Shown here: piece by piece, positions 7,621 through 56,125 of the stretch
How positions within the stretch are numbered: the first letter of the stretch is position 1
Layout: the number at the start of each line of letters is the position of its first letter
Origin: Bacteriovoracaceae bacterium UBA4573
GTDB lineage: Bacteria > Bdellovibrionota > UBA1018 > UBA923
Direction: 5' to 3'
DNA length: 64,000 nucleotides
NCBI GenBank assembly: GCA_002387735.1
Contig: DGKJ01000053.1
Location: 4,129 to 68,128, forward strand
Notes under the pieces: model-generated
Told to the model about the DNA's origin: nothing
Database searches by the model: none
Seen by the model: the letters and a program-made list of their open reading frames with translations, nothing else
Program-made: the position numbers and the translations under genes

Positions 7621-7664
7621 AAATGCCGATTTTGAAATCGTGAGTTGTTTCGTGCGAAAATAAC

Positions 7665-8756
7665 GTGATGGGTCTGCGATCAAAAATTTGTATCCTTGGC
7701 TTGCTCGTAGTTTTCTCGAGTGCTGCGGCGTATGCCGACGAAAAGAGATCGAATTTTTCGAAAATCGATAAAAATTCTACGTTGGGGTGGCTGAAGTACC
7801 CGACCGAACCCTCGCCCGAACGCCGAGGGGAAAAAAAGAATGAAGTGATTCGAAAATACCAACTGCCGCCCAAAACGAAAAACAATGTCTACAAGGCAAT
7901 GCTACCAGCCTTCTATCAAGACCTTGATTTTGACGCTTACTACCGATTTACTTTTGAGGACCTTGTTTGGGCGACTTTGGCGATTGAAGGTGAGACCGAT
8001 TGCGATGGGCGAGAACATTCAGCCGCGGTGTTGTGGACCATCGCGCAGCGAGGCGGAATTAATCCAAAACGCCGATTGAGTAACGATAAAAGTTACGCGG
8101 ACGCCTTGATAGAGTACTGTCAGCCAATTAAGCCGAAATGGGCCAATCCCAAAAAAGTCTGTGCCGGTAAAAATAAGGATGAAGTCGTGTGTGATCCAAA
8201 AGTTATTGCACGGCGAAAAAAGGGAATAAAGTTGGGCAAGGCTATTTTAAAGGCAGGCTCCTTTGACCTCGAAGCTAAAGAGCTGCAAACACAACTGCGC
8301 CGCCACGGATTGACGAAAGCGGATTTTAAATCGTTTATAAGACCGCAATGTCTTCAGATCGCTTACGATTTCGTAACCGGAAATCTTCCGAATCCGGTTC
8401 CGGGCGCTACCGAATTCGCGCAGCACTGCAAGCAGGGTAAACAACACGATTTTTTAGTTAAATTTCAACGTAAAGACAAAGTGATTCATTCAAAAAGTAG
8501 GCGCAGGTGTCCGTCGAAGAAGTCGAAGAAAAAAGGGGGAAATCTCTTTTTTACCGACGAAGTATTGTTGGGGAAAACTCGCTATTCGACAAAAAACTGG
8601 GACGGTTCTGAAATAAAAATTATTAGCCCGTCGGGGAGTGAATCGCGGGTCGCCTCGAGAATTCAAGAGACCGACGAACCCAAACGAGTCGCCGAAGTCA
8701 TACCAGTCTCAAACGAAAATAGAAAAGACCGGGACGCCAGCATGGGAGTGAATTGA
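7665..8756 (+). CDS. Hypothetical exported protein with a basic C-terminal tail
   Basis: 363 aa with an N-terminal signal peptide (LGLLVVFSSAAAYA). The C-terminus is Lys/Arg-rich. No confident family assignment. GTG at 7665 or ATG at 7668 could be the start. Confidence 0.4.
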   Translation: MMGLRSKICILGLLVVFSSAAAYADEKRSNFSKIDKNSTLGWLKYPTEPSPERRGEKKNEVIRKYQLPPKTKNNVYKAMLPAFYQDLDFDAYYRFTFEDLVWATLAIEGETDCDGREHSAAVLWTIAQRGGINPKRRLSNDKSYADALIEYCQPIKPKWANPKKVCAGKNKDEVVCDPKVIARRKKGIKLGKAILKAGSFDLEAKELQTQLRRHGLTKADFKSFIRPQCLQIAYDFVTGNLPNPVPGATEFAQHCKQGKQHDFLVKFQRKDKVIHSKSRRRCPSKKSKKKGGNLFFTDEVLLGKTRYSTKNWDGSEIKIISPSGSESRVASRIQETDEPKRVAEVIPVSNENRKDRDASMGVN

Positions 8757-8759
8757 TCC

Positions 8760-8918
8760 ATGGGCGAGCGCAATTTACGACACGACCTGGGCAGCGTGAT
8801 TTCTACTTTAAAAGTAGCTGAGGCGGCCATTCGCGAAAAAGATGAAGAGATTGCTGAGTTAGTAGCCGCTGCTCTTGAACGATTGCTCGAGATTTCGGAT
8901 TCACTCGATAAAAAATGA
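8760..8918 (+). CDS. Small ORF (52 aa), helical acidic peptide MGERNLRHDLGSVISTLKVAEAAIREKDEEIAELVAAALERLLEISDSLDKK
   Basis: Below the track's 60-aa cutoff. The ATG lies 4 nt after the stop of the upstream gene. It could be a genuine small protein or chance. Confidence 0.2.
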   Translation: MGERNLRHDLGSVISTLKVAEAAIREKDEEIAELVAAALERLLEISDSLDKK

Positions 8919-8939
8919 AATCAGACATAGAATGAAGTC

Positions 8940-9479
8940 ATGGTCAGGTGCGTTTGTCGATTCACTTTAATCGGTGTTTTATTGCTCGCAAGCGCCTGCC
9001 GCGTCTATGACACGCCAAAAGCGACCGATGGCGCTAGCTCCAATATCGACGCGGTGATTTCGTGTACGCGGGACGCCGAAGTACGCCAAACTAATCCGAG
9101 ATTTCACAATGTAGATCGCTGCGAAGGGTCGTACACCATTCAGGGAATTAGTTATCGTTGTGGGCGAGTAGGAGACGTTGCTACTAAAACCTATGAATTT
9201 CTAAATACCTTGAACCAGCGAGCCAGGACTCGTTGTGAACAACTGTGCCGCGAACGAGGAAGAGGTTGTGAGGGGTCCTATCGCGATGCCAGCAAATGCG
9301 GATTTTCGGTTCCCACAAGTCGCGCCACGATGGTGGGTACCAAAATAGTTGGATGTCATCCAAACTGCGAGGGCACAGCGTTCATTTACTGTTCCCTTTA
9401 CCACGGCAGTTATTTTCGCATTGAAGACCACCTGTTCGAAGACATGGAACCGAATTGTTACTGCAGAAGAGCTCGTTGA
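8940..9479 (+). CDS. Cysteine-rich exported protein / putative lipoprotein
   Basis: 179 aa with a signal peptide and lipobox-like LLASAC. It contains ~16 Cys, including CEQLCRERGRGCEGSYRDASKCGF. No family recognised. Confidence 0.4.
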   Translation: MVRCVCRFTLIGVLLLASACRVYDTPKATDGASSNIDAVISCTRDAEVRQTNPRFHNVDRCEGSYTIQGISYRCGRVGDVATKTYEFLNTLNQRARTRCEQLCRERGRGCEGSYRDASKCGFSVPTSRATMVGTKIVGCHPNCEGTAFIYCSLYHGSYFRIEDHLFEDMEPNCYCRRAR

Positions 9480-9542
9480 TTCCTACAAACAGTAGTAATA
9501 TCAGTTATTTAAATACTTTATTAAAATAATCAGATATTTAAT

Positions 9543-9571
9543 TTGCCGCATCGCATCTACTGAGTTAGAAT
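9543..9571 (+). promoter_or_regulatory. Sigma70-like promoter candidate for the 9610 lipoprotein gene
   Basis: TTGCCG (9543-9548), 17-nt spacer, TAGAAT (9566-9571), in a 120-nt AT-rich intergenic region. Confidence 0.3.
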
Positions 9572-9609
9572 GCGCCACCAATATTAGTTTTACTTGAAAG
9601 GTGTGCGGC

Positions 9610-11022
9610 ATGAAGTTTTCCCAATTTTCTTTGGCTATTTTCGCGGTACTAGCGATCGGTGTAAGTGGGTGTTCAAAATCTAAAGACCAAACCATAACCG
9701 AAGTGGTCTACAGCGAGCAAAAGGCCCAAAAGTTGATCGATGAGGGAAAACCGCTTGAGGCCGCAACCGAATACACCAACATTGCTGAACTTTTATTCAC
9801 CCCCGAGGGCATACAACACGCAGACTCGCTGCTCGACCGCGCGTTGATGCTCGACGCATCCAATCCGAAAGCCAATTTTTTGAGTGCTTTCGTAAAAATC
9901 GTGTTGGTGACTAAACATTTGGAGCACCGAATGGCGCCCCTGCGGGAAATTGGTGGCACGCTCAACGACATTCCAGCACAAATTTATTACGAACATTCTA
10001 AACTCCGAAAAGCTGTGCGAGGCTTTCAATCGCAGTCTGCTTATTCTCAATTCGTGAAGCAAAGCAGCGATTCTGTTTCGCAGTTTAAAAATTATTTGGA
10101 TTTGCAAGAGCACTTGAAAACGGTTGTATTGCCGGTGCTTGAGCAAGGTACCGCCAAATTAGAAAAAGTTTTGGCTAGTGGTGCGAAGTTCGACGTGCGT
10201 GTTGATAATGGTGCCTGGGGTGCGAATGAGTATAGTAACCATGACTATTCACACAGTACCTATTGTTACCAGAACGGAGGCCACTGGCGCTGCAACTACT
10301 ATGTCTACAGCTATTATTTAGAAAAACCTGTTGCAGCTCAGCGGCTCACAGCGGACTCAAATGACCTTCGAGTGATACTAGGCGGGCTGCGCGCCATGAC
10401 CGACAGTGTGCGTCTGTCGCTTGCCTATAGTTTTGAAGGCCTCGATCGCGTGATCAAAGAAGTGGTGCGGGTGCAAAAGAACCGGGAACGATTTGCGAAA
10501 AAGTTTTCTCATCTGCGCGCCATCGATCGCAATATTTCGACTCGTCAGTTAGTTGAGATTTTAAGAAGTGAGCCGAAATTTTTAAGTTTGACCGACGAAA
10601 CGCAGCTCTCGAAAATTCCGTATAATTCCGAACGAATTATGCGAGAAATTCTAGATCTCGGTGCGATGGAACTAGAGTTATGCGGTAGCGAGACTCGTCG
10701 AATGACCCATCTCGTTGCTTCGGTCTGTTTCACAGGTAACGCCGTGGCATTGGCTACCCGTAACTTAGAAATGTTGGCTGGCCCCTCTCGCGTGCGGATC
10801 GGGTACGACGAAATTGGGGAGCCAGTTGAAATTCTCATGGACGTGACCGCGTTGTTTCGCGATCCTTCGAGAGATCTCAAGAGTCTTTTGCCGAACAAAT
10901 TCAATCGCAAAGGGCATGCGATTTCTTACCCCGATCCTACAATGGGCGGGTTGTTCCCCGATGGCGATTTGATCGAACGACTTAAAGTTATCGATGCTCC
11001 AGGCGTCAGCCATATCGACTAA
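9610..11022 (+). CDS. Lipoprotein of unknown function
   Basis: MKFSQFSLAIFAVLAIGVSGCSKSK is a signal peptide with lipobox VSGC. An RBS (AAAGGTG) lies upstream. The track starts at GTG 9601; ATG 9610 is preferred. Confidence 0.5.
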   Translation: MKFSQFSLAIFAVLAIGVSGCSKSKDQTITEVVYSEQKAQKLIDEGKPLEAATEYTNIAELLFTPEGIQHADSLLDRALMLDASNPKANFLSAFVKIVLVTKHLEHRMAPLREIGGTLNDIPAQIYYEHSKLRKAVRGFQSQSAYSQFVKQSSDSVSQFKNYLDLQEHLKTVVLPVLEQGTAKLEKVLASGAKFDVRVDNGAWGANEYSNHDYSHSTYCYQNGGHWRCNYYVYSYYLEKPVAAQRLTADSNDLRVILGGLRAMTDSVRLSLAYSFEGLDRVIKEVVRVQKNRERFAKKFSHLRAIDRNISTRQLVEILRSEPKFLSLTDETQLSKIPYNSERIMREILDLGAMELELCGSETRRMTHLVASVCFTGNAVALATRNLEMLAGPSRVRIGYDEIGEPVEILMDVTALFRDPSRDLKSLLPNKFNRKGHAISYPDPTMGGLFPDGDLIERLKVIDAPGVSHID

Positions 11023-14524: not shown

Positions 14525-16117
14525 ATGAGTAAAAAGAAAACTTCAACCGGCTTATCGAACGGAATCAAGGTCTTTCTCGAATGGGTTGAGCGCACTGGAA
14601 ACAAGCTCCCGGATCCGGTGTTCTTATTCATCTACTTAACGGTGGCGTTGGTATTGGTTTCAGTAGTTTGTGCGCTTTTAGGACTTTCCGCTATTCACCC
14701 TACCCAAAAAAGTCCAGACGGCGGGGCCTTCGTCATTCGGGCGGCGAGTTTGTTGTCGCCTGCTAATATTCAAAAATTTTGGGTTGATATGCCGGCCACT
14801 TTTACGCACTTTCACCCGCTCGGCTACGTATTAGTCGTCATGCTAGGTGCGGGTGTGGCGGAACGTTCAGGACTCTTCGCGACGGCAATGCGGTTTGCGG
14901 TCAGTAAGGCGCCCGTGGCGCTTTTGACGCCACTGGTGGCCCTGATCGCTATGATTTCCAGCCACGCCGCTGATGCAGGTTACGTGGTGTTGATTCCCTT
15001 GGCTGGAATTTTATTCGCGGCCGCGGGGCGGCACCCTCTTGCGGGAATAGGTGCCGCATTCGCGGGCGTATCGGGCGGGTTTTCGGCCAACATTACGCCC
15101 GGACAGCTTGACGCACTTTTGCTCGGAATCACGGAAACAGCGGTGGTGGCAAGTAAACTTGACCCTAAGTGGACCGTGAATCTTGCAGGGAATTGGTGGT
15201 TTATCATCGGAATGACGCTCGTCTTTTTGCCGACGATTTGGTTTGTCACCGATCGAATTATTGAACCGCGGCTTGGGAAATGGACGCCGAGCGATTCAAG
15301 CCCAGTCGCAAATTCCGAAAAAAAGAATATCTCCACTGCCGAACGCAGAGGTCTGGGGCGAGCTGGTTGGGCTCTGCTCGGTGTTATAGGTTTGTGGGTC
15401 TTCATGGTGGTAGGACCTGGAGCACCCTTGCTTGGAAAAGGGGCGCCTGATGCTGCGTGGTACGTAAAAGCCGCACCCTTATTTAAGTCGCTCGTTTCGG
15501 CGTTCTTTTTATTGTTTCTCGCCTCTGGTTGGGCTTACGGTGCAGCTGCAGGCACGATAAAAAATCATCGCGACCTAGTTAAGATGATGGCCGATTCAAT
15601 GAAAGACATGGGCTATTATTTGGTACTCGCGTTTGTGGCGGCACATTTCGTTGCCATGTTTGGCTGGTCGAATCTTGGTTTGATTTTCGCAATTCATGGG
15701 GCCAACGGAATAGAAAGCACCGGGCTTCCAATGCCAGCCTTGCTCGTGCTCATTCTTTTGTTCAGTTCTGCACTCAATATTTTAATTGGTTCCGCGAGCG
15801 CAAAGTGGGCGCTGATGGCGCCAGTATTAGTGCCTATGCTCATGCTTCTTGGTGTGAGTCCCGAGGCTACGACGGCCGTGTATCGGGTAGGCGATGGCGC
15901 TACGAATATCATTACTCCGCTCATGGTGTATTTCCCATTGGTATTGGTGTTTGCCCAAAAATGGCGACCGGATTTTGGGCTCGGAAGCCTAACCGCGCTC
16001 ATGTTGCCGTATTCGGTAGCCATCCTGTTAGTTGGGACCTTGCTGGTACTGCTGTGGGTACTCGTTGGTGCGGAACTGGGACCTAACGCGCCATTGCACT
16101 ACATTTTGCCGAGGTAG
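14525..16117 (+). CDS. abgT: AbgT-family transporter (p-aminobenzoyl-glutamate / antimetabolite efflux family)
   Basis: 530 aa. The N-terminus LSNGIKVFLEWVERTGNKLPDPVFLFIYL and overall TM topology match AbgT/MtrF. Confidence 0.8.
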   Translation: MSKKKTSTGLSNGIKVFLEWVERTGNKLPDPVFLFIYLTVALVLVSVVCALLGLSAIHPTQKSPDGGAFVIRAASLLSPANIQKFWVDMPATFTHFHPLGYVLVVMLGAGVAERSGLFATAMRFAVSKAPVALLTPLVALIAMISSHAADAGYVVLIPLAGILFAAAGRHPLAGIGAAFAGVSGGFSANITPGQLDALLLGITETAVVASKLDPKWTVNLAGNWWFIIGMTLVFLPTIWFVTDRIIEPRLGKWTPSDSSPVANSEKKNISTAERRGLGRAGWALLGVIGLWVFMVVGPGAPLLGKGAPDAAWYVKAAPLFKSLVSAFFLLFLASGWAYGAAAGTIKNHRDLVKMMADSMKDMGYYLVLAFVAAHFVAMFGWSNLGLIFAIHGANGIESTGLPMPALLVLILLFSSALNILIGSASAKWALMAPVLVPMLMLLGVSPEATTAVYRVGDGATNIITPLMVYFPLVLVFAQKWRPDFGLGSLTALMLPYSVAILLVGTLLVLLWVLVGAELGPNAPLHYILPR

Positions 16118-34902: not shown

Positions 34903-36624
34903 ATGGTGGGGGAATTCGTCAATCGGATTCGAACGGGGCCGCGTTTTGCGTTGCTCCTTGTAATGGTCTTCACGCCGGTGCTTTTTTGCGCCAAGGCCGG
35001 TGCAGAAATTCGAGCTTGCGAAAAGGAACCCCGAAAAATTATTCCGGGCTTTGACGAATCAGAAGCTCGAGTGCGTGCCCGTATCGATGCTGGCGAGACG
35101 GTTGACTTGGCTGGACTTGAAGCCTGTTCCGCAAAAATTCAAAACTGTGCAACCGATCTTTCACCGATTTCAATTGAAACAGTCGAATTGTTCAAAAATT
35201 TTTCACTCTCCAAAACATCAAAAAAAATGGTGACCGGCAAATTCAAAAAAGAAACCAGAGAAGCCCTCGATAACGGTGACGATCTAATTAGTTGCGACCG
35301 CGACGGTCTAGCCGCGCGTACCGCGGCAGCAGTTGCTATCGCCAGCGCGGCAGTTCAGGCCGAGGAAGATCTTGAGGCCTTAAAAGCCGACCGCATCGCG
35401 GACGAAAAAGAGCGACTGCGGCTGGCTCTAATCGCGTCACCACTGATGTGCCGAGATCTCGAAGAGTTTAATGAACTAGCGGGGATCTCCGCGCAGGTCG
35501 ATGACTTTCAGGATCGAATAGTAGAAGAAGCCGCGGTGCTTGAAGTGGTTTACGGTATGTGCAAAGGGCTAAAAACCGCATCTTCCAAATGGAAAAGATC
35601 GCGGGGTAAAAAGGGCGGATTAGATCTTGAACGAAAACTTCTCGCTTCTTTGCGAGCGCATTCAGATTTACCTAAGTTCGCCCTTTACGAAAAGTGGCCC
35701 GGTTGTCCGTGTGACAAAGACAAGTCGAGCCGTAAGATCAAAGGGGTTTGTTTCAAGGGGCTGACCCCCTATGATCCGATCGACGAACGAGTACCGCAGT
35801 TGCTCGAGCGATATGCAGAAAAACTTCAGGCCTGGGCAGTGGCCAATGGTATGACGCTCAGTTCGGTTCAGATGGGTGGTTGCTCCTTTGCTCGTCTGGC
35901 GCGTGCCGGCGGTCATGAAGACGGAACATTCGATCATAGTGATATCAGTTCTCACGCCGAGTCGAGTGCGTGCGATCTGTACAGTGCCACTTTCGAAGAG
36001 ACGGTAAAGTCGGGTAAAGATCGAGTTAAAACTAAAACCAAAACGGTTAAATTTTTTGACCTACGAAGTAGGAAAAGAAAAAAAATTCAGTCACACCCTT
36101 TTGCAGACGCGTTTCAAAAATATTTAAATTGGATGGATAAAGAAAAACCATTAATCGAGCGAATGGCATTTAAGCGTCATGATGTGGAATTAAAACGCGA
36201 AATAGTGAAACGGGTAAATAGTTCGAAAGATCGCACTAAAGGCAAACACCACGATATTGAAGAAAAAAAATCGAAGAGCCGAATTCCCGAGGCGATTTAT
36301 GACTACCGAAAATTGGCCGATGAGCTGGAAAAAAATGGTTGTCCGCTAAAAGATGAAAATTCCTGCGATCAACTGCGCTTGGGATTTCTTTTAATAAATG
36401 CAGGACGCGATGTAGGGTTTCTCACGATTGCCCCCGGTGTCGGCAGTCACGATGGCCACGTTCACTTAGGTGCTTCGCCCGACGAACAAGACTCTCTTCG
36501 TTTGACCAGCGGGTTGATGCCCACCGAGTGTCACGATAAACTTATCGACTACTACGTGATTCGAGCCGCCGGCCTTGAACTGCCGTACCCGCAGTGCGCC
36601 GAGCGCTTTAAAATGTCTCGTTGA
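34903..36624 (+). CDS. Exported protein with C-terminal LAS-superfamily (M15/M23-like) zinc-hydrolase motifs; putative cell-wall peptidase
   Basis: 573 aa with signal peptide. A charged/coiled N-terminal half is followed by H338-x5-D344 and SSHAESSACD (nt 35914-35976), resembling SxHxxGxAxD. A downstream HVH (SHDGHVH, nt 36445-36465) resembles HxH. Confidence 0.4.
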   Translation: MVGEFVNRIRTGPRFALLLVMVFTPVLFCAKAGAEIRACEKEPRKIIPGFDESEARVRARIDAGETVDLAGLEACSAKIQNCATDLSPISIETVELFKNFSLSKTSKKMVTGKFKKETREALDNGDDLISCDRDGLAARTAAAVAIASAAVQAEEDLEALKADRIADEKERLRLALIASPLMCRDLEEFNELAGISAQVDDFQDRIVEEAAVLEVVYGMCKGLKTASSKWKRSRGKKGGLDLERKLLASLRAHSDLPKFALYEKWPGCPCDKDKSSRKIKGVCFKGLTPYDPIDERVPQLLERYAEKLQAWAVANGMTLSSVQMGGCSFARLARAGGHEDGTFDHSDISSHAESSACDLYSATFEETVKSGKDRVKTKTKTVKFFDLRSRKRKKIQSHPFADAFQKYLNWMDKEKPLIERMAFKRHDVELKREIVKRVNSSKDRTKGKHHDIEEKKSKSRIPEAIYDYRKLADELEKNGCPLKDENSCDQLRLGFLLINAGRDVGFLTIAPGVGSHDGHVHLGASPDEQDSLRLTSGLMPTECHDKLIDYYVIRAAGLELPYPQCAERFKMSR

Positions 36625-37366
36625 ACAACTCTTTGCAGAAACCAGATTTTCGATGGGCGTCGATCGCCAGGCGAACGCTTCGCGCGAATGATTTTGCTAA
36701 TTCAGGGTGGTCCATAAAAATTTTTCTCAGACTTCTGGATAATTCGATCTGAACGCCCTGTTGCGCGGTTCGATTGACAATATTTCGCGGGTGCATTCCC
36801 GCAAATTTTCTAGCTTCTTCCCACGGTAAAATGTGAAGGCTTGGCATGGTTCGTTCTGCGAAGTCCTCTAGACGAGCCGCGATTTTATCTCGCAATAAAC
36901 TGTTTTGACCGCCCAAGATCACAGTGGCCCGTTCATTTTCTATTGGGTTTCCGAACCAGTAAAACCCGTGCACGCTCACGCTAGTGGAGGCTCGTTCGAG
37001 CATTTCAAGGGCTCGGGGTTCGTCGAACAAAGTGCTGGGAACATGGTGATCCCAGGCCGGTTCTTCGGGAAGAAGGGATTCAAACTTATACAGCGAGTGT
37101 TCGCCGCCGGCTATCAAGTCGGCGAGTTCCGACGTGCCTGGTTCGATATTACCGCCGTGAATTGCGAGCACTAAAATTGGCGACCGTCGCAAAATAGCCG
37201 CAACTCGAAAGTCGCGGTCTTCGGTGAATTCTTTTCGTAGTTCAAAAAAACTATCGAATCGATCGATGTGGTTTCCGTGAGTATTGTTCGCATAGGCGGC
37301 TCCGCCGGCCACCAAAAAGGTAGCAGCAAATGTGTAAATTTTTCGAAGAGTAATATTTACCGACAT
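36608..37366 (-). CDS. Poly-gamma-glutamate hydrolase family (PF05908-like) protein, exported
   Basis: 252 aa with signal peptide. LAIHGGNIEPGTSELADLIAG matches the HGGxIExGT signature I recall for PghP/YjqB-type gamma-PGA hydrolases. Confidence 0.5.
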   Translation of the reverse strand: MSVNITLRKIYTFAATFLVAGGAAYANNTHGNHIDRFDSFFELRKEFTEDRDFRVAAILRRSPILVLAIHGGNIEPGTSELADLIAGGEHSLYKFESLLPEEPAWDHHVPSTLFDEPRALEMLERASTSVSVHGFYWFGNPIENERATVILGGQNSLLRDKIAARLEDFAERTMPSLHILPWEEARKFAGMHPRNIVNRTAQQGVQIELSRSLRKIFMDHPELAKSFARSVRLAIDAHRKSGFCKELFNETF

Positions 37367-38118
37367 TAAGACCGATCTAATAGAGGTCGCAGAATTGGGA
37401 AATATAAATCTTCTTCGAGCGGCATTCCGAGATTTGCGCGCCGATCCTCTTCTACGAAAGTGAGGGCAGTGCCATGAACCACCGCGAGTGGGCGCGGAAC
37501 GGTACCCTCGCCCATGGCGTAGACCGCAAGTCCCGCTAGCGCATCGACATGATTAATCTGCGTCATTTTAAACGGTCTTCCGTAAAGGTCGGGGGCGCCC
37601 ACCAGATTTTCGGTGGGTTCAAAGCCCCAGAACGACAAGCCGATTCCCGTAACTCCGCGGCGTAGCGGAGTGGTGTGAGAGTCAGTTAATATCACCCCTA
37701 GGTTTTTTAGACCCCAACGCTCGCGTAACTCTTGCCATAGTTTTTGGGCCGAGGCGTAGGGGTCGATCGGATAGAGAATATAAAAGTCGCCAGCAGCATT
37801 GCTCTCATCGATCCCTGCCGCCGGAATTAAAAGGCCATGCGCTACGGTGAGCGTGGTGTTGTAGCCGATGGTGCCAAGAAAGTGTTCACATTCTCGACGC
37901 ACCAAATCCTCTTTAGATGGTGCTTCGTCCTTCAGAAGAATTCTATTCTCGGCCAGAGAAACGATTTTCGAGGTGACGGCCAACACCATGTTTTCCCGCA
38001 CCAGGGAGCGTGGCACTTGGGTCGCAATGAAATCCGCCAAGTGACCACCAACAGCAAACAGAGGCGTTTCAACGGCTTGGACAGAAATGGCTGTAGAATT
38101 CGGTTTAGTAAGAGGCAT
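37366..38118 (-). CDS. CofE-like gamma-glutamyl ligase family protein (F420-0:gamma-glutamyl ligase fold, PF01996-like)
   Basis: 250 aa. VTSKIVSLAENR, GIDESNAAG and LTDSHTTPLRRGVTGIGL resemble CofE motifs. Its stop overlaps the downstream hydrolase start, and its start overlaps the upstream transporter stop. Confidence 0.55.
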   Translation of the reverse strand: MPLTKPNSTAISVQAVETPLFAVGGHLADFIATQVPRSLVRENMVLAVTSKIVSLAENRILLKDEAPSKEDLVRRECEHFLGTIGYNTTLTVAHGLLIPAAGIDESNAAGDFYILYPIDPYASAQKLWQELRERWGLKNLGVILTDSHTTPLRRGVTGIGLSFWGFEPTENLVGAPDLYGRPFKMTQINHVDALAGLAVYAMGEGTVPRPLAVVHGTALTFVEEDRRANLGMPLEEDLYFPILRPLLDRS

Positions 38119-38848
38119 TTTTCGATTTACCGACCCACTTCATCGCAGCGTACATCAGCGGCGTATCTAGGGTAGCAAGCAAGGTTTTTAATAAAAACGG
38201 CGGGACCATGGCTTTCATTAATTCGGGCGCTGGGAGTACTCCCGCCAGAAAAATTGTCATGAAAACGACTGTGTCGATAGCCTGGCCGACTAATGTAGAA
38301 ACATTTTTTCGAAGCCAGAAGTGGCGCCCCTCGGTACGTCTGCGAATGGCATGAAAAAGCCGTACGTCGATAAGCTGGGAAATTGTATAGGCCGTAATCG
38401 AAGCAAGCACCATACGGGGAGTTAGTGAATACATTGCCGCATAGGCTTCGGACAGGTCCCGGCGCGGTGAGGGTGGTAGCAAACCCCCAATTTCTACGAT
38501 CACAAGTGCGATGACTTGAACAAAAAGTCCGGTCCAAACCATGTTGGTGGCCGTTTTTGGTCCAAAGAGTTCTGACACAATATCGCAGACTAAAAAAGTA
38601 AGAGGAAACACCAGAATTCCGGCCGAAACCGTGAATCCGCCTACCATTACCAGCTTCGAACCGATCAGATTAGCGGTCACCAGTGATCCCGAAAAAACAC
38701 CGGCCAGGAGTGTGAGGGCAAAAGCTCTTTGGTCTGTCATGTGTGGGCCATCCATTAACTTAGAGGGTCGAGCGAGTTCAACTTTATCTTTTAAAGGGGA
38801 ATTGCTTGGGGTCCCTTGCGGTGTCCACCGGTATTTGATATAACGCAT
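38105..38848 (-). CDS. VUT/YhhQ-family (DUF165) queuosine-precursor-type transporter
   Basis: 247 aa and polytopic. ITAYTISQLIDVRLFHAIRRRTEGRHFWLRKNVSTLVGQAIDTVVF matches the YhhQ family. Confidence 0.65.
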   Translation of the reverse strand: MRYIKYRWTPQGTPSNSPLKDKVELARPSKLMDGPHMTDQRAFALTLLAGVFSGSLVTANLIGSKLVMVGGFTVSAGILVFPLTFLVCDIVSELFGPKTATNMVWTGLFVQVIALVIVEIGGLLPPSPRRDLSEAYAAMYSLTPRMVLASITAYTISQLIDVRLFHAIRRRTEGRHFWLRKNVSTLVGQAIDTVVFMTIFLAGVLPAPELMKAMVPPFLLKTLLATLDTPLMYAAMKWVGKSKNASY

Positions 38849-39253
38849 GGCGGTATTAGAAAGGGGTTCAGGGGTATGTCACTTTCTCAATCTGAAAAAA
38901 GATTCACTATTTACCATAATCCACGGTGCACCAAGAGCCGGGAGACGCTCGATCGTCTAAAAAAGGCAGGAATCGAGCCGCGAGTGGTGGAGTATTTAAA
39001 AAATCCCATTTCGGCAGACGACCTTGATCGCCTCTTAAAACAATTGAAATTACAGCCTCATGACTTAGCTCGAAAATCCGAGGATCGCTACGTGGACCTC
39101 GAGTTGGCGACTAGTCCGCCGCGAACTCGCAAAGAATGGGTTCATTTGTTGGCAGCCAACCCAGTACTGATTGAGCGCCCAATTGTGACCGACGGGGAAC
39201 GGGCAGTGTTGGGACGTCCCCCTGAAAACGTCGATCGTTTGCTCACTTCCTGA
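38816..39253 (+). CDS. ArsC/Spx/YffB-family thioredoxin-fold protein
   Basis: FTIYHNPRCTKSRETLDRLKKAGIEPRVVEYLKNP carries the conserved CxxS/T motif of ArsC-family proteins. Confidence 0.7.
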   Translation: MRCPPVFDITHGGIRKGFRGMSLSQSEKRFTIYHNPRCTKSRETLDRLKKAGIEPRVVEYLKNPISADDLDRLLKQLKLQPHDLARKSEDRYVDLELATSPPRTRKEWVHLLAANPVLIERPIVTDGERAVLGRPPENVDRLLTS

Positions 39254-39393
39254 ATACATTCAAAGTGAATTAGGTACGAACTTCAAAAATAGCTTAAATT
39301 CTGACTAATTTAGTTCAATATAGAAAGTGAGCATTGTCGATCTCGTGCGCTCGTGGCACATCCTTCAAGCAACAGCCAAAAAAGGGGGTGCTC

Positions 39394-41496
39394 ATGGTTC
39401 CTGTTCTTTCCATCGTGTCGGTCGGCCTCGGAATCTTCGTCGCAGGTTTTCTAGGAATTGGCTCGGTGGCTCGCGCCGCTTTGCCAAAGCCATTGCCGGT
39501 ACCGAGCGAGATTCGAATCGTCCCATCGAGTTCGCGAACAGAAATCGCCGGAGTATTGAGTTCCAATCAAAAGCACCTGGCTTATCACTTATTGCGAGCT
39601 GGCGATGCCGGCCGAACTATTCTGTTTCATCAGAACCATCGCCACGCACTTCGACTAAAAGAAGTTCTAGAAAACGCCTTTGAAAAGGAAGCCGTGGCGC
39701 GAACGCGAGAGATCGTTGGCACGGCTGAAGCGTTTAACGAACTGTTGCACTATGGTGCAAAATTTTTTGAAAACAACGGACCCTATGAGCCCGCCAACCG
39801 TAAATTTGTGCTCACCAAGGTTACTCCGCAAGCTGCCCAGCAGTTGGTCGAAGAATTTAGCGAGCCCGACGCTAACCGATGCCGAGGTTCACAAGCGGAG
39901 GTAACGAGTACCTGCACTGATTCCGCACTCAACGAAATCGTTCGTCTGATGACCGACGAGTCTTTTGAAGTGCAGCGCTTGCCCGAAACCCCAGACGGCG
40001 ATGAACTTGCGTCTACCGGTGGTAATTTGTACGAAAAACAAATCACTGGAGCTGAGGTAAAGGAATGGCTGGAAAACGGTGGAACGATTGACTTGAACTG
40101 CCGAGTGGTTCGAGCAACTGATGCGGAACTAGCTTGTCAAAAACAAACCACCCGCACTCCGGGCCCCGTTGGAGATGCGCTGCGCCGCGTGGTGCGCCAT
40201 TTGGCGCTGGCCCTGGGATACAGCGAAACGGAACATCAAAAAAACCAGATCATATATCTAATTCGTTACCTAGAGGAAGGGAATGAAGAGGATTTTCGAC
40301 TCTCGAGTATTGAATGGGTGAAAGATCGCGGGAACTCGGTCGTTGATTTTATGATGGGTTTCGTTGAAGTCTACGAAGATTACAATGCCCGCATGGGTTC
40401 CTGGGAATCTTATGTGCAGATTCTTGATCCTAAAACTACAGAGATTTCGCTAAAACTAGCGAAAAACGCCCAGTACTTCGAAGAAAAAATGCCGTATGGG
40501 GAATTTCGAAAAAAATTTCCTCCGGAGTATTCGCCGCCGGCTCTGGTCGCGTATTACCTACAAGAAATTTCTTCGATGCGAACGGCAGGATACAATTTGC
40601 CGAATTACGATGATATTCGCCGCGACGTAGGTTTTAAGAATATCATTCGACAAGACCCACTGAGTTTAGAGCAAGATCCAATTGTTCGTGACGAGCGCCG
40701 ACAAATGTATCAGGAGTTCCTTGTTGCTTCTAAAGTCGACGAGGTTCTGGAACTCGGTCCACGCGCGAAGAAACTGAAAACTCTGTTGCATGAAGTGATC
40801 GGTCATGGCTCTGGCACATACGATGTTACGAAGTACGGAGATAAAGAAGACCCGGTTTCGGCCATGGGTTCTCCCGCAAGTTCGTTGGAAGAACAACGGG
40901 CCGATCTTACGGCGTTGGTATTCGGAGCAGATGCGAAGTTAGTTGAAGTCGGAATTTTTAAAGACCAAGCCGAAGCCGACCAAATTTTGCGAGTGTTGTA
41001 CGATGACTACATGGCCGACTTCTTGCGAAACCTGGCTAAAAATCGTTCGTTTGCGCAGTCGCATCACCGTGGCCGATGGCTTTTCATAAATAAACTGCTG
41101 GAGGCAGGAGCCATTGAATGGGCTGCAAAGGATGGAGAGCAAATCTCCGATCGGAATCGCGTTTTGAATGTTAAAGACTATGCTTTATTCCACGCGACTG
41201 CTCTAAAAACTTTGGAAGACCTTCAGCGGATTAAAGCAAGTCGTGGTGAAACTGAAATGCGGGAACTTTTTGCGAAATACGCTCCGCTCGATGCGATTAA
41301 TGAACCCTGGGCTCAAGCGATTATTGAGCGAGGGGCAAAACTACGAATGAGTAATGGCACTGTCGAGCAACCATGGAAAATGAATCGAAAGGGCGTTGTA
41401 AAGGTTTTCGGAGATTCCAGTTCAATGGAATCAATCGCTACTTTTTGGAACGCCTGTTTGTATAAACCACATTTATGTCGGGAGGCATCGGAGTAA
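39394..41496 (+). CDS. Peptidase family M49 (dipeptidyl-peptidase III-like) zinc metallopeptidase, exported
   Basis: The HEVIGH motif (HExxGH) is followed ~30 aa later by EEQRAD (the EExRAE second zinc-ligand motif of DPP III). The signal/TM segment VPVLSIVSVGLGIFVAGFLG is present. ATG at 39394 with GGGGG RBS is preferred over the track start 39334. Confidence 0.55.
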   Translation: MVPVLSIVSVGLGIFVAGFLGIGSVARAALPKPLPVPSEIRIVPSSSRTEIAGVLSSNQKHLAYHLLRAGDAGRTILFHQNHRHALRLKEVLENAFEKEAVARTREIVGTAEAFNELLHYGAKFFENNGPYEPANRKFVLTKVTPQAAQQLVEEFSEPDANRCRGSQAEVTSTCTDSALNEIVRLMTDESFEVQRLPETPDGDELASTGGNLYEKQITGAEVKEWLENGGTIDLNCRVVRATDAELACQKQTTRTPGPVGDALRRVVRHLALALGYSETEHQKNQIIYLIRYLEEGNEEDFRLSSIEWVKDRGNSVVDFMMGFVEVYEDYNARMGSWESYVQILDPKTTEISLKLAKNAQYFEEKMPYGEFRKKFPPEYSPPALVAYYLQEISSMRTAGYNLPNYDDIRRDVGFKNIIRQDPLSLEQDPIVRDERRQMYQEFLVASKVDEVLELGPRAKKLKTLLHEVIGHGSGTYDVTKYGDKEDPVSAMGSPASSLEEQRADLTALVFGADAKLVEVGIFKDQAEADQILRVLYDDYMADFLRNLAKNRSFAQSHHRGRWLFINKLLEAGAIEWAAKDGEQISDRNRVLNVKDYALFHATALKTLEDLQRIKASRGETEMRELFAKYAPLDAINEPWAQAIIERGAKLRMSNGTVEQPWKMNRKGVVKVFGDSSSMESIATFWNACLYKPHLCREASE

Positions 41497-43312: not shown

Positions 43313-44350
43313 GTGTTCTTTTTTATTTCAAAAAAAATTAGTTCATCTTCGATCATGGGCTTGGGGCTCATGACGACAGTAGGTTTAACAGGTCTGAGCA
43401 TTGCGTCGAACCTGGCGTGGTCAAACGAGCGGTCGAACCCACCTGGTGCTGAAGGCGGGGCAATGATTCCTGCGCTCGATTCGCGCACCAAGGAGCCGCT
43501 CGACTTAGATAAGCTCGACTACGACAAAGACGTAAAAAATGCCGCTGACCATGTTTCAAAATGGTTTTGGGCAGAATTTGGCCAAACACCACCGCCTGGT
43601 CTTTTAGAAACCATGACGAGTGCGGAATACGAAGATATTTTAAAAACCATTGCTGTTTACGACGAAACTTCTGCGAGACGTCTTGAACTTGAGCGCACCG
43701 CTAATCGCGAAATTCTAATGAAGAAAGCGTTTCTTGAGCCGACTTCAATGGTGTTTCCTTACGAAGAGCGTATGAATGGTTACGCTCGTCGCTTCGAGTA
43801 TTATATGGATGCAGAGTTAATGCTAAAATATGATCCGAACCAAAAAATGCCTTTGGATCCTACGGCTCCGGAGTTGCCACACATGATTTCCACGGCGACC
43901 GAGGCTCGCATCCTGGCCTATCGCGAATTGCAGCAAGCATATGTGGAAATGGTGAAGTACTCCGGCTGGAGTCCTTGGCTAGGTAAAATTGCGGCGTATG
44001 CCCACAAAGTTTCGGGTGGAGTGAAAAAAATTCTACCTAAAGAACTAGGTGCGGCAGCCGGCGCCGGTGGCTTAGGCTATCTAGCAATATCAGGTGAACA
44101 AGCAGAATTTTCTTCGCAGCTCGCGGTGTTTTCGAGTAGCGCCGTTGTAGGCGGCGTTGCTGGCTACACCTGTGCATTGTTGCTCTCGGAAATTCCAAAA
44201 GGTGTTGTGGGCTGGTGGATTATGCCAACCATCAACGGCTGGACCGCTCCTCGATATGCTAGAAATGTATTTCGAAAAGCATTTAGCCAGTCCGCGCGTG
44301 CTAAAGAAGCCCGCATTCGTTTAGAAACTTTTGGTAAACGAAAAAAATAG
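43313..44350 (+). CDS. Hypothetical protein
   Basis: 345 aa. No recognisable family. The start is uncertain (the track M corresponds to GTG). Confidence 0.3.
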   Translation: MFFFISKKISSSSIMGLGLMTTVGLTGLSIASNLAWSNERSNPPGAEGGAMIPALDSRTKEPLDLDKLDYDKDVKNAADHVSKWFWAEFGQTPPPGLLETMTSAEYEDILKTIAVYDETSARRLELERTANREILMKKAFLEPTSMVFPYEERMNGYARRFEYYMDAELMLKYDPNQKMPLDPTAPELPHMISTATEARILAYRELQQAYVEMVKYSGWSPWLGKIAAYAHKVSGGVKKILPKELGAAAGAGGLGYLAISGEQAEFSSQLAVFSSSAVVGGVAGYTCALLLSEIPKGVVGWWIMPTINGWTAPRYARNVFRKAFSQSARAKEARIRLETFGKRKK

Positions 44351-47715: not shown

Positions 47716-49914
47716 ATGGGTCTATTGAGGCGCTTTATCTTCATTGCTGGATTCGCAGTTGCGAGTACCCTCGGGCAAGCGAGCGAGGTGGGTTGCGATA
47801 TCTACCTAATCCTTTCAGAACTAACCATAAAAGTGGAAGAAGGGGCGGGGTTCCGAGTAGTTGGGCGGACCGCCGATGGTAAACACGGAACCCTAATTGT
47901 TGAGTTGGGCGCCGATAAAAAACGAAAATTCTTCAAAACCACCAGCTCTGAAAACCAAGAAATCGTAGCGGCACTTTTTGGGGACGGGCACGGGGAAGGG
48001 GCCATGGCGGACCGAGAGTTTGCGAGCAGTCGGCTTTTCGCCCATGTTGGATGGGAGGGCTCAACCCGAGTACGGCGCGCGGAATTAAAAATGCGCGACG
48101 GACGGGTCGAAAAGGGCGTCTTGGTCGACGAAGTACCGGGTGAATCGCTCGCAACCATTCAAAAACGTGATCGTGGTGCCTACAATAAAATTCTACGATC
48201 ACCCGAATACAAACAGGCTGCAGAAGAAGCCACTCTGATTCAGTTTGTAACAGGAAATATAGATTGGATCTCTTATCGGGAAGGACAGGGCATCGATTTG
48301 CTCTCCGAGAACGTAATGGTCTTCGAAGACCCCGTGACCAAACGCTATTCGATACGATTTATCGACAATGGCGCCTCTTTTACAAAAACTCAGGCTGTTG
48401 ATGCAGCGGCTACTCCCCGCGAAGGTCTTTCCCTAGGTGAGCGCTTGAAGCGGCTACAATTGCTCCACGTACAGTTTGAAAAAAAATTGCCTCAAGTGTT
48501 TTATCCACTGCTTGACCTCGAAGACATGAGTAGTACGACTCAGAAATTGCTTATAAAATTAGCGGAGTTTTCAGACGAAGAATTAACCCAGCTCTTGGCT
48601 AAAAGTCCGACCTTAAATGATAACGATATCAACGGCGCGATTGCTCGGATTCGATATCTCGAAGAGCGTTTCATCGAGCGGCGGCCCGAAATTCAGATGG
48701 CTCGCAACGATTATCCGCCGGATATCAACGTTCGCGACAATGACGACATCACCAGCGGGCGGGCGCAGCGAGAAGCGACTGTCGATCTCGAGCTCGAAAC
48801 ACCGATTGTCGGAGAAAGTCCGGCCAAGGGTCGTCTTCCCGTAAAAAGTGATTTTACCGACGATCCATCTGTGCGCATCGTGGGCGAAGTTGCTCGCGTT
48901 CAGAAAAAAAACAAGAACGTGGTCTACAAGGTTGAAATCGATGGTCAGACTCATTACTTCAAACCCAAATCTGGGGAGAATCCACTAATCGGCGAGAGTT
49001 TCTTAGGAAAGTTCGAAAAAGGTATGATGGCCGATCGCGAGGTTTTTGCGTCGTTGGTATACCAAAAGGCCGGTTGGAGCGAGGTCCCCAGAGTAAAGAA
49101 AGTTAAAATCAAAGTAGACGGTGAACTCGAAGAAGGTGCTCTAGTCCAAGGGTTGCCTGGCAAAACCATTCGCGAGTTCGGAACCAAAAGGTTTGATGAA
49201 ATGATCGAAGGTCAGGCGGACTATCGACGTTCGCGCGAGCGGGCGCTGATCCTGTCTGTTGTTACCGGTAATGAAGACTGGTACCGAATTAAATCCAATC
49301 GAAACGCACATGAAAATGCCGGCAATCTCTTGTTGGAGGTCGACCCCGAAGACCCGCTTCTATATAACTATTACTGGATCGACAGTGGGCTTTCGTTTCC
49401 CCGTCGTAGTCGGCGCAGCAATACCCGCTTGCCTGGTGCGCAGTCTTCCCAGTATTTGGCCGAACAGTTCGGACACCTGTGGCCGCTGTTGCTTGATCTC
49501 GATACGCTCGACTCCGGAACAATCGATTTGATCAAAGAACTCTCCAAGGTGAGTTTCGTAGAGTGGCGCGAATTAGCGAAAGAACTGCCGACCATTACCC
49601 AAACCGATATCGAAGGAATGATGATTCGGGTGAACTATTTGAATCGACGATTTGTTCTAAACGACCCCGAATTTCAAGTGACCCAGCCAATGCGCGAGGC
49701 TTGGCATAAGAAACGAGTATCGAAGCGAATACTTCCGGGGCGTACCGTTAAGGCCGATTCCGACGATACGACCTTAACTCCTACCCAACGGCGAACAGAT
49801 ACCCACCAAGTGGACACCTCCGAGTCCACTCAGTCAGCGTTCGATAACGAACCTACTAAGGCGGGGCCACGACCGGGGGATAACGACGGAACGCCGGATC
49901 ATAGGGCCCGATAG
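47716..49914 (+). CDS. Exported protein with two tandem protein-kinase-like (PKL) domains; the second may be a pseudokinase
   Basis: Signal peptide MGLLRRFIFIAGFAVASTLGQA. Internal duplication spans residues ~47-327 and ~387-655 (nt 47854-48696 and 48874-49680). Repeat 1 has Lys (FFK), Glu (MADRE), catalytic-loop-like DLLSEN (nt 48295-48312) and DFG-like IDNG. Repeat 2 has YFK, MADRE, HENAGN (D replaced by H) and IDSG. Confidence 0.5.
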   Translation: MGLLRRFIFIAGFAVASTLGQASEVGCDIYLILSELTIKVEEGAGFRVVGRTADGKHGTLIVELGADKKRKFFKTTSSENQEIVAALFGDGHGEGAMADREFASSRLFAHVGWEGSTRVRRAELKMRDGRVEKGVLVDEVPGESLATIQKRDRGAYNKILRSPEYKQAAEEATLIQFVTGNIDWISYREGQGIDLLSENVMVFEDPVTKRYSIRFIDNGASFTKTQAVDAAATPREGLSLGERLKRLQLLHVQFEKKLPQVFYPLLDLEDMSSTTQKLLIKLAEFSDEELTQLLAKSPTLNDNDINGAIARIRYLEERFIERRPEIQMARNDYPPDINVRDNDDITSGRAQREATVDLELETPIVGESPAKGRLPVKSDFTDDPSVRIVGEVARVQKKNKNVVYKVEIDGQTHYFKPKSGENPLIGESFLGKFEKGMMADREVFASLVYQKAGWSEVPRVKKVKIKVDGELEEGALVQGLPGKTIREFGTKRFDEMIEGQADYRRSRERALILSVVTGNEDWYRIKSNRNAHENAGNLLLEVDPEDPLLYNYYWIDSGLSFPRRSRRSNTRLPGAQSSQYLAEQFGHLWPLLLDLDTLDSGTIDLIKELSKVSFVEWRELAKELPTITQTDIEGMMIRVNYLNRRFVLNDPEFQVTQPMREAWHKKRVSKRILPGRTVKADSDDTTLTPTQRRTDTHQVDTSESTQSAFDNEPTKAGPRPGDNDGTPDHRAR

Positions 49915-54418: not shown

Positions 54419-56125
54419 TCACCAACTTCGGGGGTCCGGATTATCAAGGCATGGATCTTTACCGTTGCTGCTAGCATGGGCGGCCCACTGAGCCATGGTA
54501 CGACCGGCCCAATGATCGTCCACGTCGCTTGACCAATTGTTTTTTCGAGCCAGTTCTAATTCTTGTTCGATTGATCGTACGGTCCACTGGTAGAGTCCGG
54601 GAGTAGCAGGGTCGGGCGAAGGTTCGCCCCAGGCGACCCAACGCACGCCTTGATCTTTCCAATATTTGCGAGGCGCGTGAATCGGGTTGTGAGTGCACCA
54701 GACAAAGCCGCGAGCTTTGGCTTTATATAGGTATAATAGCTCACTGCCACGCGAGCGAACTGTCATGACGACAAACGGGTGGCGTTCTGGAAACACTTGT
54801 TCATTCCAACCATGTAAATAATCAGGGGCCCTGGGGTCATTGATGCGCGCGGCGTAGGCTAGGTAAGGAGGGACTCCTTTGCGATAAGCGGTGCCGCACA
54901 CGGCAGTTACTAATACTGCGAGAGCAAGCGCCAACAGTCGGTGATGCTTATCAATGGTACCTAAAACGACTTCTGCGAGGAGAGCGAGTGCGATACCTGT
55001 CGCCAGTGCACGCCCTACGTCGAAGGGTAGAGCGTAGTATTCGTGTACGATGTAAACGGCCCAGAATAGAAACACGAACACAAAGAGCGCAATGCCATAG
55101 GGCACGGCGACTTGGGCGAATTTAAGAGCCCAAGCTTTTACGGGTCGACGAAAAAAAATCGAAAGTACAGCGAGGGCGGGTAATACGAGAAAAATGCCCG
55201 TTTGCTGGGCCCATTTGAGCAAATTGGAAGTGAAAAACTTTGGCTCAAAACGTTCACTCCAGTTCCCAAAATACCAACGAGTCGCTCTGGGCCCAGTATG
55301 CAATATCCAAGGTAGGTCCGAAGCTTGACCGAGTACGTGGCCCCAGGCAAGCCACCCCACTACGACCAGACTTCCGGTTCCCAGCGCCAATATGCCGCGA
55401 ACACTTGGTGCAATTCCCTGAATTCGCCAGCGAATGGCAAGAAAGACTGTCCAAAAAACAGCGAAAAATGCGAAGCCCTGCGGTTTGTGTACTCCGGTCA
55501 TCGCCCAAGCCGATCCGGCTATCAGAGGCCACACGTAGCGAGCCATTCCAGCTTTAGACCCCGCTTCGGTCCGCACACTCCCATAGAGTGCGACCAGAGC
55601 GAAGAACAACATTCGATTTTCGACCATTGTATACGTTGCATAGCGAAGCCAGAGCTCATCACACGCGAGTAAAAATACCGAAACCGCGCTCCCAATCAAT
55701 GCGAATGGAGTTGCAATCCCTACCAGCTGGGCGAGCGCAAAAGACAATGCGCCCAACACCAGTAGGCTTGCTGCCGAAAACCAAATGCTCACAGATTTTC
55801 CGATTTTTTCAACCGCGCCTTCGCATTCGGTTCCGCCCAGACCACGAGCAAGCACTCCCTGCAGCCATTCAAAACCCGTGTACTCGAGATTGAATGGATT
55901 GTTTCCGAAGTGAATTTGCGGTCCCTTTAAAATCGAATGAGAGGGATTGTGGCAATACATTCGTATGATTCCGGCGGTAAAACCCTGGCGCTCAGCGCTT
56001 CTTCCGCCAGAAGGCCGTTCAAAAGCTAAGGGGAGAGTAAGAAAAAGAAAAACCGCAGCACAACCCCAAGTCCAAAGTTGAGTGGCGAACCAAAGTTTGC
56101 GGTGTTCTTGATTGGAGTCTTCCAA
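54419..56125 (-). CDS. GT-C-fold polytopic membrane glycosyltransferase, paralog A (polyprenyl-P-sugar dependent, ArnT/PMT/ALG-like)
   Basis: 568 aa with ~11 TM and a C-terminal soluble domain. A DELW motif (LLACDELWLRY) in an early loop parallels DEIW in the adjacent paralog. Confidence 0.5.
   Translation of the reverse strand: MEDSNQEHRKLWFATQLWTWGCAAVFLFLTLPLAFERPSGGRSAERQGFTAGIIRMYCHNPSHSILKGPQIHFGNNPFNLEYTGFEWLQGVLARGLGGTECEGAVEKIGKSVSIWFSAASLLVLGALSFALAQLVGIATPFALIGSAVSVFLLACDELWLRYATYTMVENRMLFFALVALYGSVRTEAGSKAGMARYVWPLIAGSAWAMTGVHKPQGFAFFAVFWTVFLAIRWRIQGIAPSVRGILALGTGSLVVVGWLAWGHVLGQASDLPWILHTGPRATRWYFGNWSERFEPKFFTSNLLKWAQQTGIFLVLPALAVLSIFFRRPVKAWALKFAQVAVPYGIALFVFVFLFWAVYIVHEYYALPFDVGRALATGIALALLAEVVLGTIDKHHRLLALALAVLVTAVCGTAYRKGVPPYLAYAARINDPRAPDYLHGWNEQVFPERHPFVVMTVRSRGSELLYLYKAKARGFVWCTHNPIHAPRKYWKDQGVRWVAWGEPSPDPATPGLYQWTVRSIEQELELARKNNWSSDVDDHWAGRTMAQWAAHASSNGKDPCLDNPDPRSW

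Follow-up and report, generated by a model that had tools for sequence, protein, structure and literature searches.

The question raised by the locus described here is whether a transporter, a ligase and a hydrolase encoded by three overlapping genes are devoted to a single substrate and, if so, which substrate this might be. The genes occur in a stretch of 64,000 nucleotides (nt) from Bacteriovoracaceae bacterium UBA4573, a member of the Bdellovibrionota (GenBank assembly GCA_002387735.1, contig DGKJ01000053.1, positions 4,129 to 68,128 of the forward strand), which was analysed as a whole and is referred to hereafter as the window, all coordinates being those of the window. An earlier note on this DNA had described the trio as a set for an unknown gamma-glutamylated small molecule. 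The observation itself was borne out, its interpretation only in part: the molecule in question is most likely folate. The central ligase very probably belongs to the FolC2 type of enzymes acting on folate, and the permease encoded upstream of it recurs next to this ligase, or fused to it, in related bacteria. The best overall explanation of the locus, to which roughly even chances are given, associates a FolC2 ligase with a dedicated importer of the VUT family and with a hydrolase added in this particular lineage.

The three genes are read from the minus strand and consist of open reading frames (ORFs) of 247, 250 and 252 amino acids (aa). The first gene of the operon (38848..38105) encodes a permease of the VUT/QPTR (YhhQ, COG1738) family, matched by the Pfam profile Vut_1 (PF02592, E=4.7e-49). 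The second gene (38118..37366) encodes a gamma-glutamate ligase with the CofE fold, assigned to the FolC2 type and predicted to be a dihydrofolate synthase / folylpolyglutamate synthase, matched by F420_ligase (PF01996, E=1.3e-32), and the third one (37366..36608) a predicted secreted zinc gamma-glutamyl hydrolase of the PghP/PghL family (MEROPS M86), matched by Gamma_PGA_hydro (PF05908, E=3.5e-42). These matches agree with the families proposed in the earlier note, and the overlaps it had reported were read again directly from the sequence. At the first junction, read as ATGcctcttacTAA in the context ...aaaaATGcctcttacTAA..., the ATG of the ligase lies at 38118 and the stop codon of the permease ends at 38105, which results in an overlap of 14 nt (38105..38118, minus strand), read as translational coupling. 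The second junction is a TAATG (37364..37368, minus strand, in the context ...tctTAATGtcg...), in which the stop of the ligase and the start of the hydrolase have the single base 37366 in common. An identical layout of the trio occurs in six independent metagenome contigs, evidently from the same organism, and is therefore not an assembly artefact; the window is also contained in a contig of 615 kb (ERZ761592 NODE_6).

With respect to the ligase, the PF01996 (COG1478) domain extends over profile positions 2-218 of 218, and among the NCBIfam models the highest score goes to TIGR04132 ('putative folate metabolism gamma-glutamate ligase'), whereas the CofE model TIGR01916 yields 116 bits and its cutoff of 180.65 is not reached. 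The protein contains the motifs GIDESN (residues 102-107), DSHTTPLRRG (146-155), GVTGI and EDLY. In the alignment GIDESN, DSHTTPLR, GVTGI and EDLY are common to the window ligase, a Chlamydiales protein, the proteins named after TIGR04132 and a triple fusion of HPPK, DHPS and ligase, whereas the actinobacterial F420 ligases exhibit G(I/V)D(T/A)SN, DTxGRPWR and GxTD at those sites. Every column that is invariant in F420-type as well as folate-type ligases (TSK, GxDxSN, D146, R153, G155, D177 and others) is kept, so that the loss of conserved CofE residues, named in the earlier note as an argument against its own reading, is not observed. The window ligase, which resembles the Af-CofE structures (3.5e-19), thus possesses the homologous catalytic core of CofE and of FbiB's N-terminal domain, and can be presumed, by homology, to catalyse the nucleotide-dependent gamma-glutamyl ligation of these enzymes. 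CofE forms dimers in which the active site is placed at the interface. The pocket for the chromophore is different. Among the residues that hold the deazaflavin in Af-CofE (F92, G153-C155 and R234), F92 belongs to a stretch which the window ligase does not have, G153-R154-C155 are aligned with T149-T150-P151, of which T149 and P151 are invariant among close relatives, and R234 lies outside the aligned region; moreover, no F420 gene context surrounds the gene.

The prototype to which the window ligase can be compared comes from Chlamydia trachomatis. Chlamydia lacks FolC, for which De Crecy-Lagard et al. predicted a substitute in the COG1478 gene of its folate cluster (CT611, 'FolC2'), and they found CT611 to complement an Escherichia coli folC mutant. 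The chlamydial cluster is organized as folB-folKP-folA-folC2-ct610, with folK and folP fused, CT610 being a p-aminobenzoate synthase. A similar organization was found around the relatives of the window ligase, which were collected as 80 loci (42-57% identity over the main match) coming nearly all from metagenome-assembled genomes of Bdellovibrionota or Oligoflexia. After clustering of the neighbouring genes, 74 of these loci were analysable, and an HPPK+DHPS fusion (folK-folP) neighbours the ligase in 35 of them, at position -1 in 33. Upstream of folKP these loci usually encode FolB and a CT610-like protein (PqqC/TENA/haem-oxygenase-like), a set of genes which corresponds to the layout of the chlamydial cluster. 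The association goes as far as a single chain in a database protein of 672 aa (P0254), which consists of HPPK (PF01288), DHPS (PF00809) and ligase (PF01996) domains. Such a chain would hold three consecutive steps of the folate pathway. In three other loci (L060, L062 and L079, at about 7300-10700) the order is folD-gcvT-gcvH-ligase, an arrangement that ties FolC2 to folate-using enzymes, not to folate synthesis.

The placement of the orthologues in folate operons, the motifs in common with the Chlamydiales and TIGR04132 proteins and the missing deazaflavin-pocket residues of CofE all lead to the reading of the window ligase as a FolC2, and hence as a member of an already known but under-annotated kind. 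The acceptor considered as unknown in the earlier note accordingly has a likely identity, the ligase falling in a group whose members reside in folate operons or are fused to HPPK-DHPS. The protein is nevertheless a distant representative of its type, only 37-41% identical to the members from Chlamydiales and to those named after TIGR04132, and 49% identical to a soil-metagenome member (P0250). Unlike the FolC2 genes of folate operons, its gene is flanked by those of a VUT permease and of a secreted hydrolase: no folKP, folB or CT610-like (CADD-like) gene was found either in the window or in some 200 kilobases (kb) of the loci in which the ligase is linked to a VUT gene, and the 64 kb of the window are devoid of folate-synthesis, cof and queuosine genes as well as of a canonical FolC.

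Besides folate genes, the ligase orthologues have a second recurrent partner, the VUT permease itself, which occurs directly upstream in 9 of the 80 loci. Depending on the locus, the two genes are separate or fused. In all five unfused loci (L026, L049, L059, L072 and L074) the stop of the VUT gene overlaps the start of the ligase gene, whereas in the four others (L015, L022, L028 and L048) both proteins form one in-frame ORF of 450-462 aa. A database search with the L022 fusion as the query retrieved 18 protein clusters with the PF02592+PF01996 architecture, with identities down to 50%. Where long contigs are available, the fusion gene was found by itself in three neighbourhoods unrelated to each other, which is what a self-contained unit would lead one to expect. 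For one of the fusions an AlphaFold (AF2) model (mean predicted local distance difference test score, pLDDT, of 82; predicted template modelling score, pTM, of 0.56) exhibits a last membrane helix (residues 175-210) which runs almost directly into the first strand of the ligase (216-221), with a linker close to zero. This continuity implies that the ligase is anchored at a single face of the permease, which in the model would presumably be the cytoplasmic one, since the ligase needs a nucleotide and glutamate.

The permeases linked to the ligase also resemble each other. In an exhaustive search with the window VUT, which matches PF02592 with 167 bits, a representative of the fusions came 5th among 4,649 matches, and in a tree of 157 VUT sequences all 23 ligase-linked VUTs occur within one clade of 27, 95 of 100 bootstrap replicates holding them within 31 terminals or fewer. 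The window VUT is not orthologous to E. coli YhhQ by the equivalog test (NF008406, 60.3 bits against a cutoff of 252), and its clade adjoins or fuses with FolC2, not with queuosine genes. It nonetheless shares with the QPTR / YhhQ proteins the Pfam and TIGR00697 families as well as a precedent: fusions of QPTR with TGT already join a transporter to the enzyme consuming its substrate. A literature search, which did not cover all journals, of the QPTR papers and of co-mentions of both families retrieved no prior report of a link between VUT and the ligase, so that the recurrent adjacency and fusion of VUT with FolC2 appears to be an undescribed variant.

Two further observations concern these fusions. 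In one clade of loci (L022, L027, L031, L037 and L050) a sigma-54-activator-like (AAA+) protein of about 540-555 aa, identified by eye, is encoded upstream of the ligase or of the fusion, whether the VUT part is present or not; the gene lies directly upstream in four of these loci and one gene further in L050. Elsewhere in the family, P0437 joins a VUT domain to an O-methyltransferase-like one, and tandem VUT-VUT proteins occur (P0306, P0307 and P0316). The VUT family seems prone to enzyme fusions, which might reveal other substrates.

The recurrence of the pair makes it probable that the permease and the ligase act in one pathway. Transporters in general prefer folate monoglutamates, and polyglutamylation keeps folate inside the cells; a permease tethered to the enzyme that adds the tail is the form expected for an import-and-trap device. 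According to the mechanism proposed, the FolC2-type ligase would extend dihydropteroate and/or folates by gamma-linked L-glutamate at the expense of a nucleoside triphosphate, in replacement of FolC, and the VUT permease, as its dedicated partner, would most likely import either a folate monoglutamate or a pterin compound of the pteroate type. On the cytoplasmic side the imported compound would be glutamylated by the ligase and, in this way, both retained and converted to a good cofactor. A folate or a pteroate, and not a 7-deazaguanine, is predicted as the substrate of the window VUT with a confidence that only slightly exceeds an even chance; the step from a 7-deazaguanine to a pterin substrate, both of which contain a 2-amino-4-oxopyrimidine ring, is an inference only.

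The hydrolase encoded by the third gene matches, among proteins of known structure, the PDB entries 21dc (2e-20), 5onj, corresponding to PghL (7.5e-18), and 3a9l, corresponding to PghP (2e-15). In PghL (YndL), H41, E46 and H102 bind zinc and E165 is catalytic, while R171, together with H77, T79 and S80, has been proposed to set the strict specificity towards gamma-L-glutamyl chains, the R171S mutant being fully inactive. Residues H70, E75, H133, E208, H108 and R214 of the window hydrolase are aligned with H41, E46, H102, E165, H77 and R171, respectively, R214 being in register (QIELSRSLRK against QIEMSTGFRK in PghL) and the equivalent of T79 being Pro110. The residues that bind zinc in PghL, its Glu of catalysis and its Arg of gamma-L-specificity are therefore kept in a protein which is at most 46% identical to the 70 homologues found. 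A Sec signal peptide was predicted by direct reading and a hydropathy scan over residues 1-26 (37289..37366, minus strand), MSVNITLRKIYTFAATFLVAGGAAYA followed by NN, in which a basic n-region precedes a hydrophobic core, itself followed by an A-x-A site. Similar N-termini occur in the closest homologues (P0122, P0126, P0127, P0128 and P0152, one of them from a Bdellovibrionales genome), whereas the phage-type homologues are devoid of them. The signal peptide places the action of the hydrolase outside the cytoplasm, so that it does not counteract the ligase.

The tails of folates consist of gamma-L-Glu, and the chemistry of the hydrolase thus fits them. As a lineage-specific addition, the secreted enzyme may strip the polyglutamate tails from external folates to make them transportable, its proposed substrate being short folyl-gamma-Glu(n) tails instead of the long capsule polymer; a function as folate deconjugase (conjugase), based on the family and the residues described above, is proposed with reserve and remains rather doubtful, the obvious alternative being an enzyme that scavenges gamma-glutamyl polymers or peptides. 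The whole sequence of events would be to deconjugate, import and reconjugate, following the logic of folate handling in animals, where the tail is taken off outside (GCPII/GGH conjugase), the monoglutamate is carried in (RFC/PCFT) and the tail is rebuilt (FPGS). The likeness is one of function only, all three window proteins being unrelated to these animal proteins and to the bacterial folate carriers ECF-FolT and FBT. In contrast to PghP and PghL, the window hydrolase is chromosomal, provided with a signal peptide, translationally coupled to a folate ligase and found in what is likely a Gram-negative predator lineage. This reading, which unites all three genes, is attractive but unproven.

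Several points weigh against it. The ligase scores 209 bits with TIGR04132, below the trusted cutoff of 350, and is consequently a relative of the curated clade and not a strict member of the equivalog. The window VUT passes the cutoff of TIGR00697, the 'queuosine precursor transporter' model (171.9 bits for a cutoff of 50.95), and every characterised VUT/QPTR member carries preQ0, preQ1 or queuine. The VUT link concerns only about 11% of the ligase loci, and the VUT clade possibly reflects, in part, taxonomy instead of function. Blind look-ups guided by VUT similarity were also divided: the in-clade P0310 was found to be overlapped at its stop codon by a PF01996 gene (locus L178), about 4-5 kb around the in-clade P0311 contain no ligase gene and the out-of-clade P0320 has no adjacent ligase, from which it follows that the VUT clade is strongly enriched for the ligase linkage and not defined by it. 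Rfam scans of the window and of the 9 VUT-ligase loci detected no tetrahydrofolate (THF) riboswitch. As regards the third gene, the link between hydrolase and ligase is limited to this species, and the characterised PghP-family enzymes cut long poly-gamma-glutamate (gamma-PGA), hexaglutamate being a poor substrate for PghL.

The co-conservation of the trio, on which the earlier note had made its reading depend, consequently holds for one half of it: the permease and the ligase recur together and fuse, whereas the hydrolase gene is absent beside the ligase in all 80 loci. Its relatives reside in unrelated contexts, namely a restriction-modification/recombinase island (P0124), hypothetical genes (P0127) and ppk/sodC (P0152), and the idea of a conserved three-gene unit was rejected on these grounds. 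A recent horizontal transfer of the hydrolase gene was also considered and received no support, the GC content, the GC content at third codon positions and the codon usage all being ordinary.

Of the explanations that dispense with a folate importer, the one that survives best, although it is considered unlikely, assumes that the three genes are co-transcribed for no common substrate. FolC2 would then be the housekeeping enzyme of a folate prototroph, the VUT permease would import queuosine precursors, and the hydrolase, perhaps with the nearby periplasmic gamma-glutamyltransferase (GGT), would scavenge gamma-glutamyl polymers or peptides for glutamate. A PghP-type endo-hydrolase and GGT form a known route of gamma-PGA breakdown in Bacillus. 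The TIGR00697 score, the 7-deazaguanine substrates of the characterised transporters, the restriction of the hydrolase link to one species and the in-clade VUT without an adjacent ligase are all readily accommodated by this explanation, and a loose co-regulation is conceivable insofar as GTP cyclohydrolase I serves the synthesis of both folate and queuosine (PMC5372724). The fusions are much more difficult to accommodate: in 18 diverged clusters transporter and ligase have remained a single chain, with almost no linker, which is hard to explain outside a common pathway. In addition, no queuosine genes surround the fusion gene in the three neighbourhoods mentioned above, no preQ1 riboswitch was found by Rfam in the window or in the 9 linked loci, and ggt is not conserved near the ligase (0 of 80 loci). 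The earlier note had attached some weight to ggt (PF01019, 33095-34810); this proximity turned out to be specific to the organism, and a convergent gene lies between ggt and the trio.

The interpretation closest to that of the earlier note, for which the chances appear definitely poor, keeps the three genes together for a non-folate molecule, e.g., carboxylated 7-deazaguanine (CDG), imported by the VUT permease and glutamylated by a neofunctionalised CofE-like enzyme. It is consistent with the 7-deazaguanine precedent of the transporter family, with the carboxylate acceptors used by the CofE-fold ligases, with the score of the ligase under the TIGR04132 cutoff and with the VUT domains fused to TGT and to a methyltransferase, which suggest a family prone to substrate-specific enzyme pairings. 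The VUT-linked ligases do not, however, form a separate clade of paralogues. In a rough neighbour-joining tree, they are found at no fewer than four places among the folKP-linked ones, at 44-57% identity and with all signature motifs in common, and the nearest neighbour of the window ligase (L012) has folKP and a CT610-like (CADD-like) gene alongside. Owing to this intermixing, both sorts of ligases are regarded as orthologues of one FolC2 family and not as a neofunctionalised paralogue; queuosine or deazapurine genes are also lacking in the window and next to the fusions.

That the central gene encodes a true CofE building the tail of F420, as might be argued from the PF01996 match, the similarity to the Af-CofE structures and the name 'coenzyme F420-0:L-glutamate ligase' given to many orthologues by public sources, is practically untenable in view of the TIGR01916 score, the non-conserved deazaflavin contacts, the folate genes around the orthologues and the absence of cof genes from the 64-kb window, and the earlier note was right to discard F420 biosynthesis.

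Returning to the operon itself, the exact beginning of the permease gene is ambiguous, gene callers having chosen M1, M32 (38755) or M37 (38740). Homology to VUT proteins begins around residues 36-46, and M32 or M37 is likely to be the true start. An ArsC-family gene (38816-39253, plus strand, with a start at 38876) is divergent from the VUT gene, and a VUT start at M32 or M37 would leave an intergenic region of about 120-135 bp shared with it. No sigma-70-like promoter was found on the strand of the VUT gene, and the counts of a promoter and terminator scan of 36300-39300 equal the shuffle background. With the exception of one tRNA, no Rfam family matched the window at gathering score, and none was found even at E<=10 in 38000-39400, nor in the 9 VUT-ligase loci. 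Taken together, the riboswitch scans say nothing either way about the ligand of the transporter.

The gene located between ggt and the trio is an ORF of 573 aa (34903-36624, plus strand), convergent with the hydrolase gene, the 3' ends overlapping by 17 nt, and kept in all contigs of this organism. Its label as a LAS-type hydrolase in the earlier note found no backing: the protein has no Pfam match even at E<=10, no NCBIfam match and only chance-level matches in the PDB, and a single-sequence AF2 model reaches a pLDDT of 37, too low to be of use. Two other genes of the window may have some relation to folate. An AbgT-family protein of 530 aa (14525-16117, plus strand), matched by PF03806 (ABG_transport, a family of p-aminobenzoyl-glutamate transporters and antimetabolite effluxers), represents a second folate-related transporter some 20 kb away from the trio. 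A DNA photolyase (PF00875+PF03441) is encoded at 6238-7620 (plus strand); this class of enzymes uses a folate or a deazaflavin as antenna cofactor. Three further ORFs, of 732 aa (47716-49914, plus strand), 568 aa (54419-56125, minus strand) and 345 aa (43313-44350, plus strand), have no Pfam hit recorded in the contig annotation.

The naming of these proteins in public databases deserves some attention. Among the entries P0021, P0082, P0088, P0096, P0196 and P0206, FolC2 orthologues from Bdellovibrionota are labelled 'coenzyme F420-0:L-glutamate ligase', the only label given to fusions being 'queuosine precursor transporter' or TIGR00697, whereas some entries of the Joint Genome Institute (JGI) read 'dihydrofolate synthase / folylpolyglutamate synthase', so that the annotation is systematically inconsistent. 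Both of the former labels probably mislead metabolic reconstructions, e.g., by implying the salvage of F420 or of queuosine in predatory bacteria.

For the organism, the preferred reading of a FolC2 ligase with its own VUT importer and an added hydrolase may mean that folate is salvaged, although it may also be made, and in its complete form it pictures a probable predator harvesting the polyglutamylated folates set free by other cells, by means of a secreted PghP-like conjugase and of a COG1738/VUT subfamily devoted to the import of folate or pteroate in physical association with FolC2; in this complete form the proposal is tentative and has the odds against it. If the part devoted to the hydrolase were true, the role of the PghP family would extend beyond capsule degradation, the characterised members being known only as gamma-PGA depolymerases. 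To date, the folate carriers remain unidentified in many folate-requiring bacteria. In this respect, the VUT subfamily fused to a folate-tail ligase represents a concrete and directly testable candidate for a folate or pteroate importer, which would come with its own mechanism, that of a transporter tethered to the trapping enzyme.

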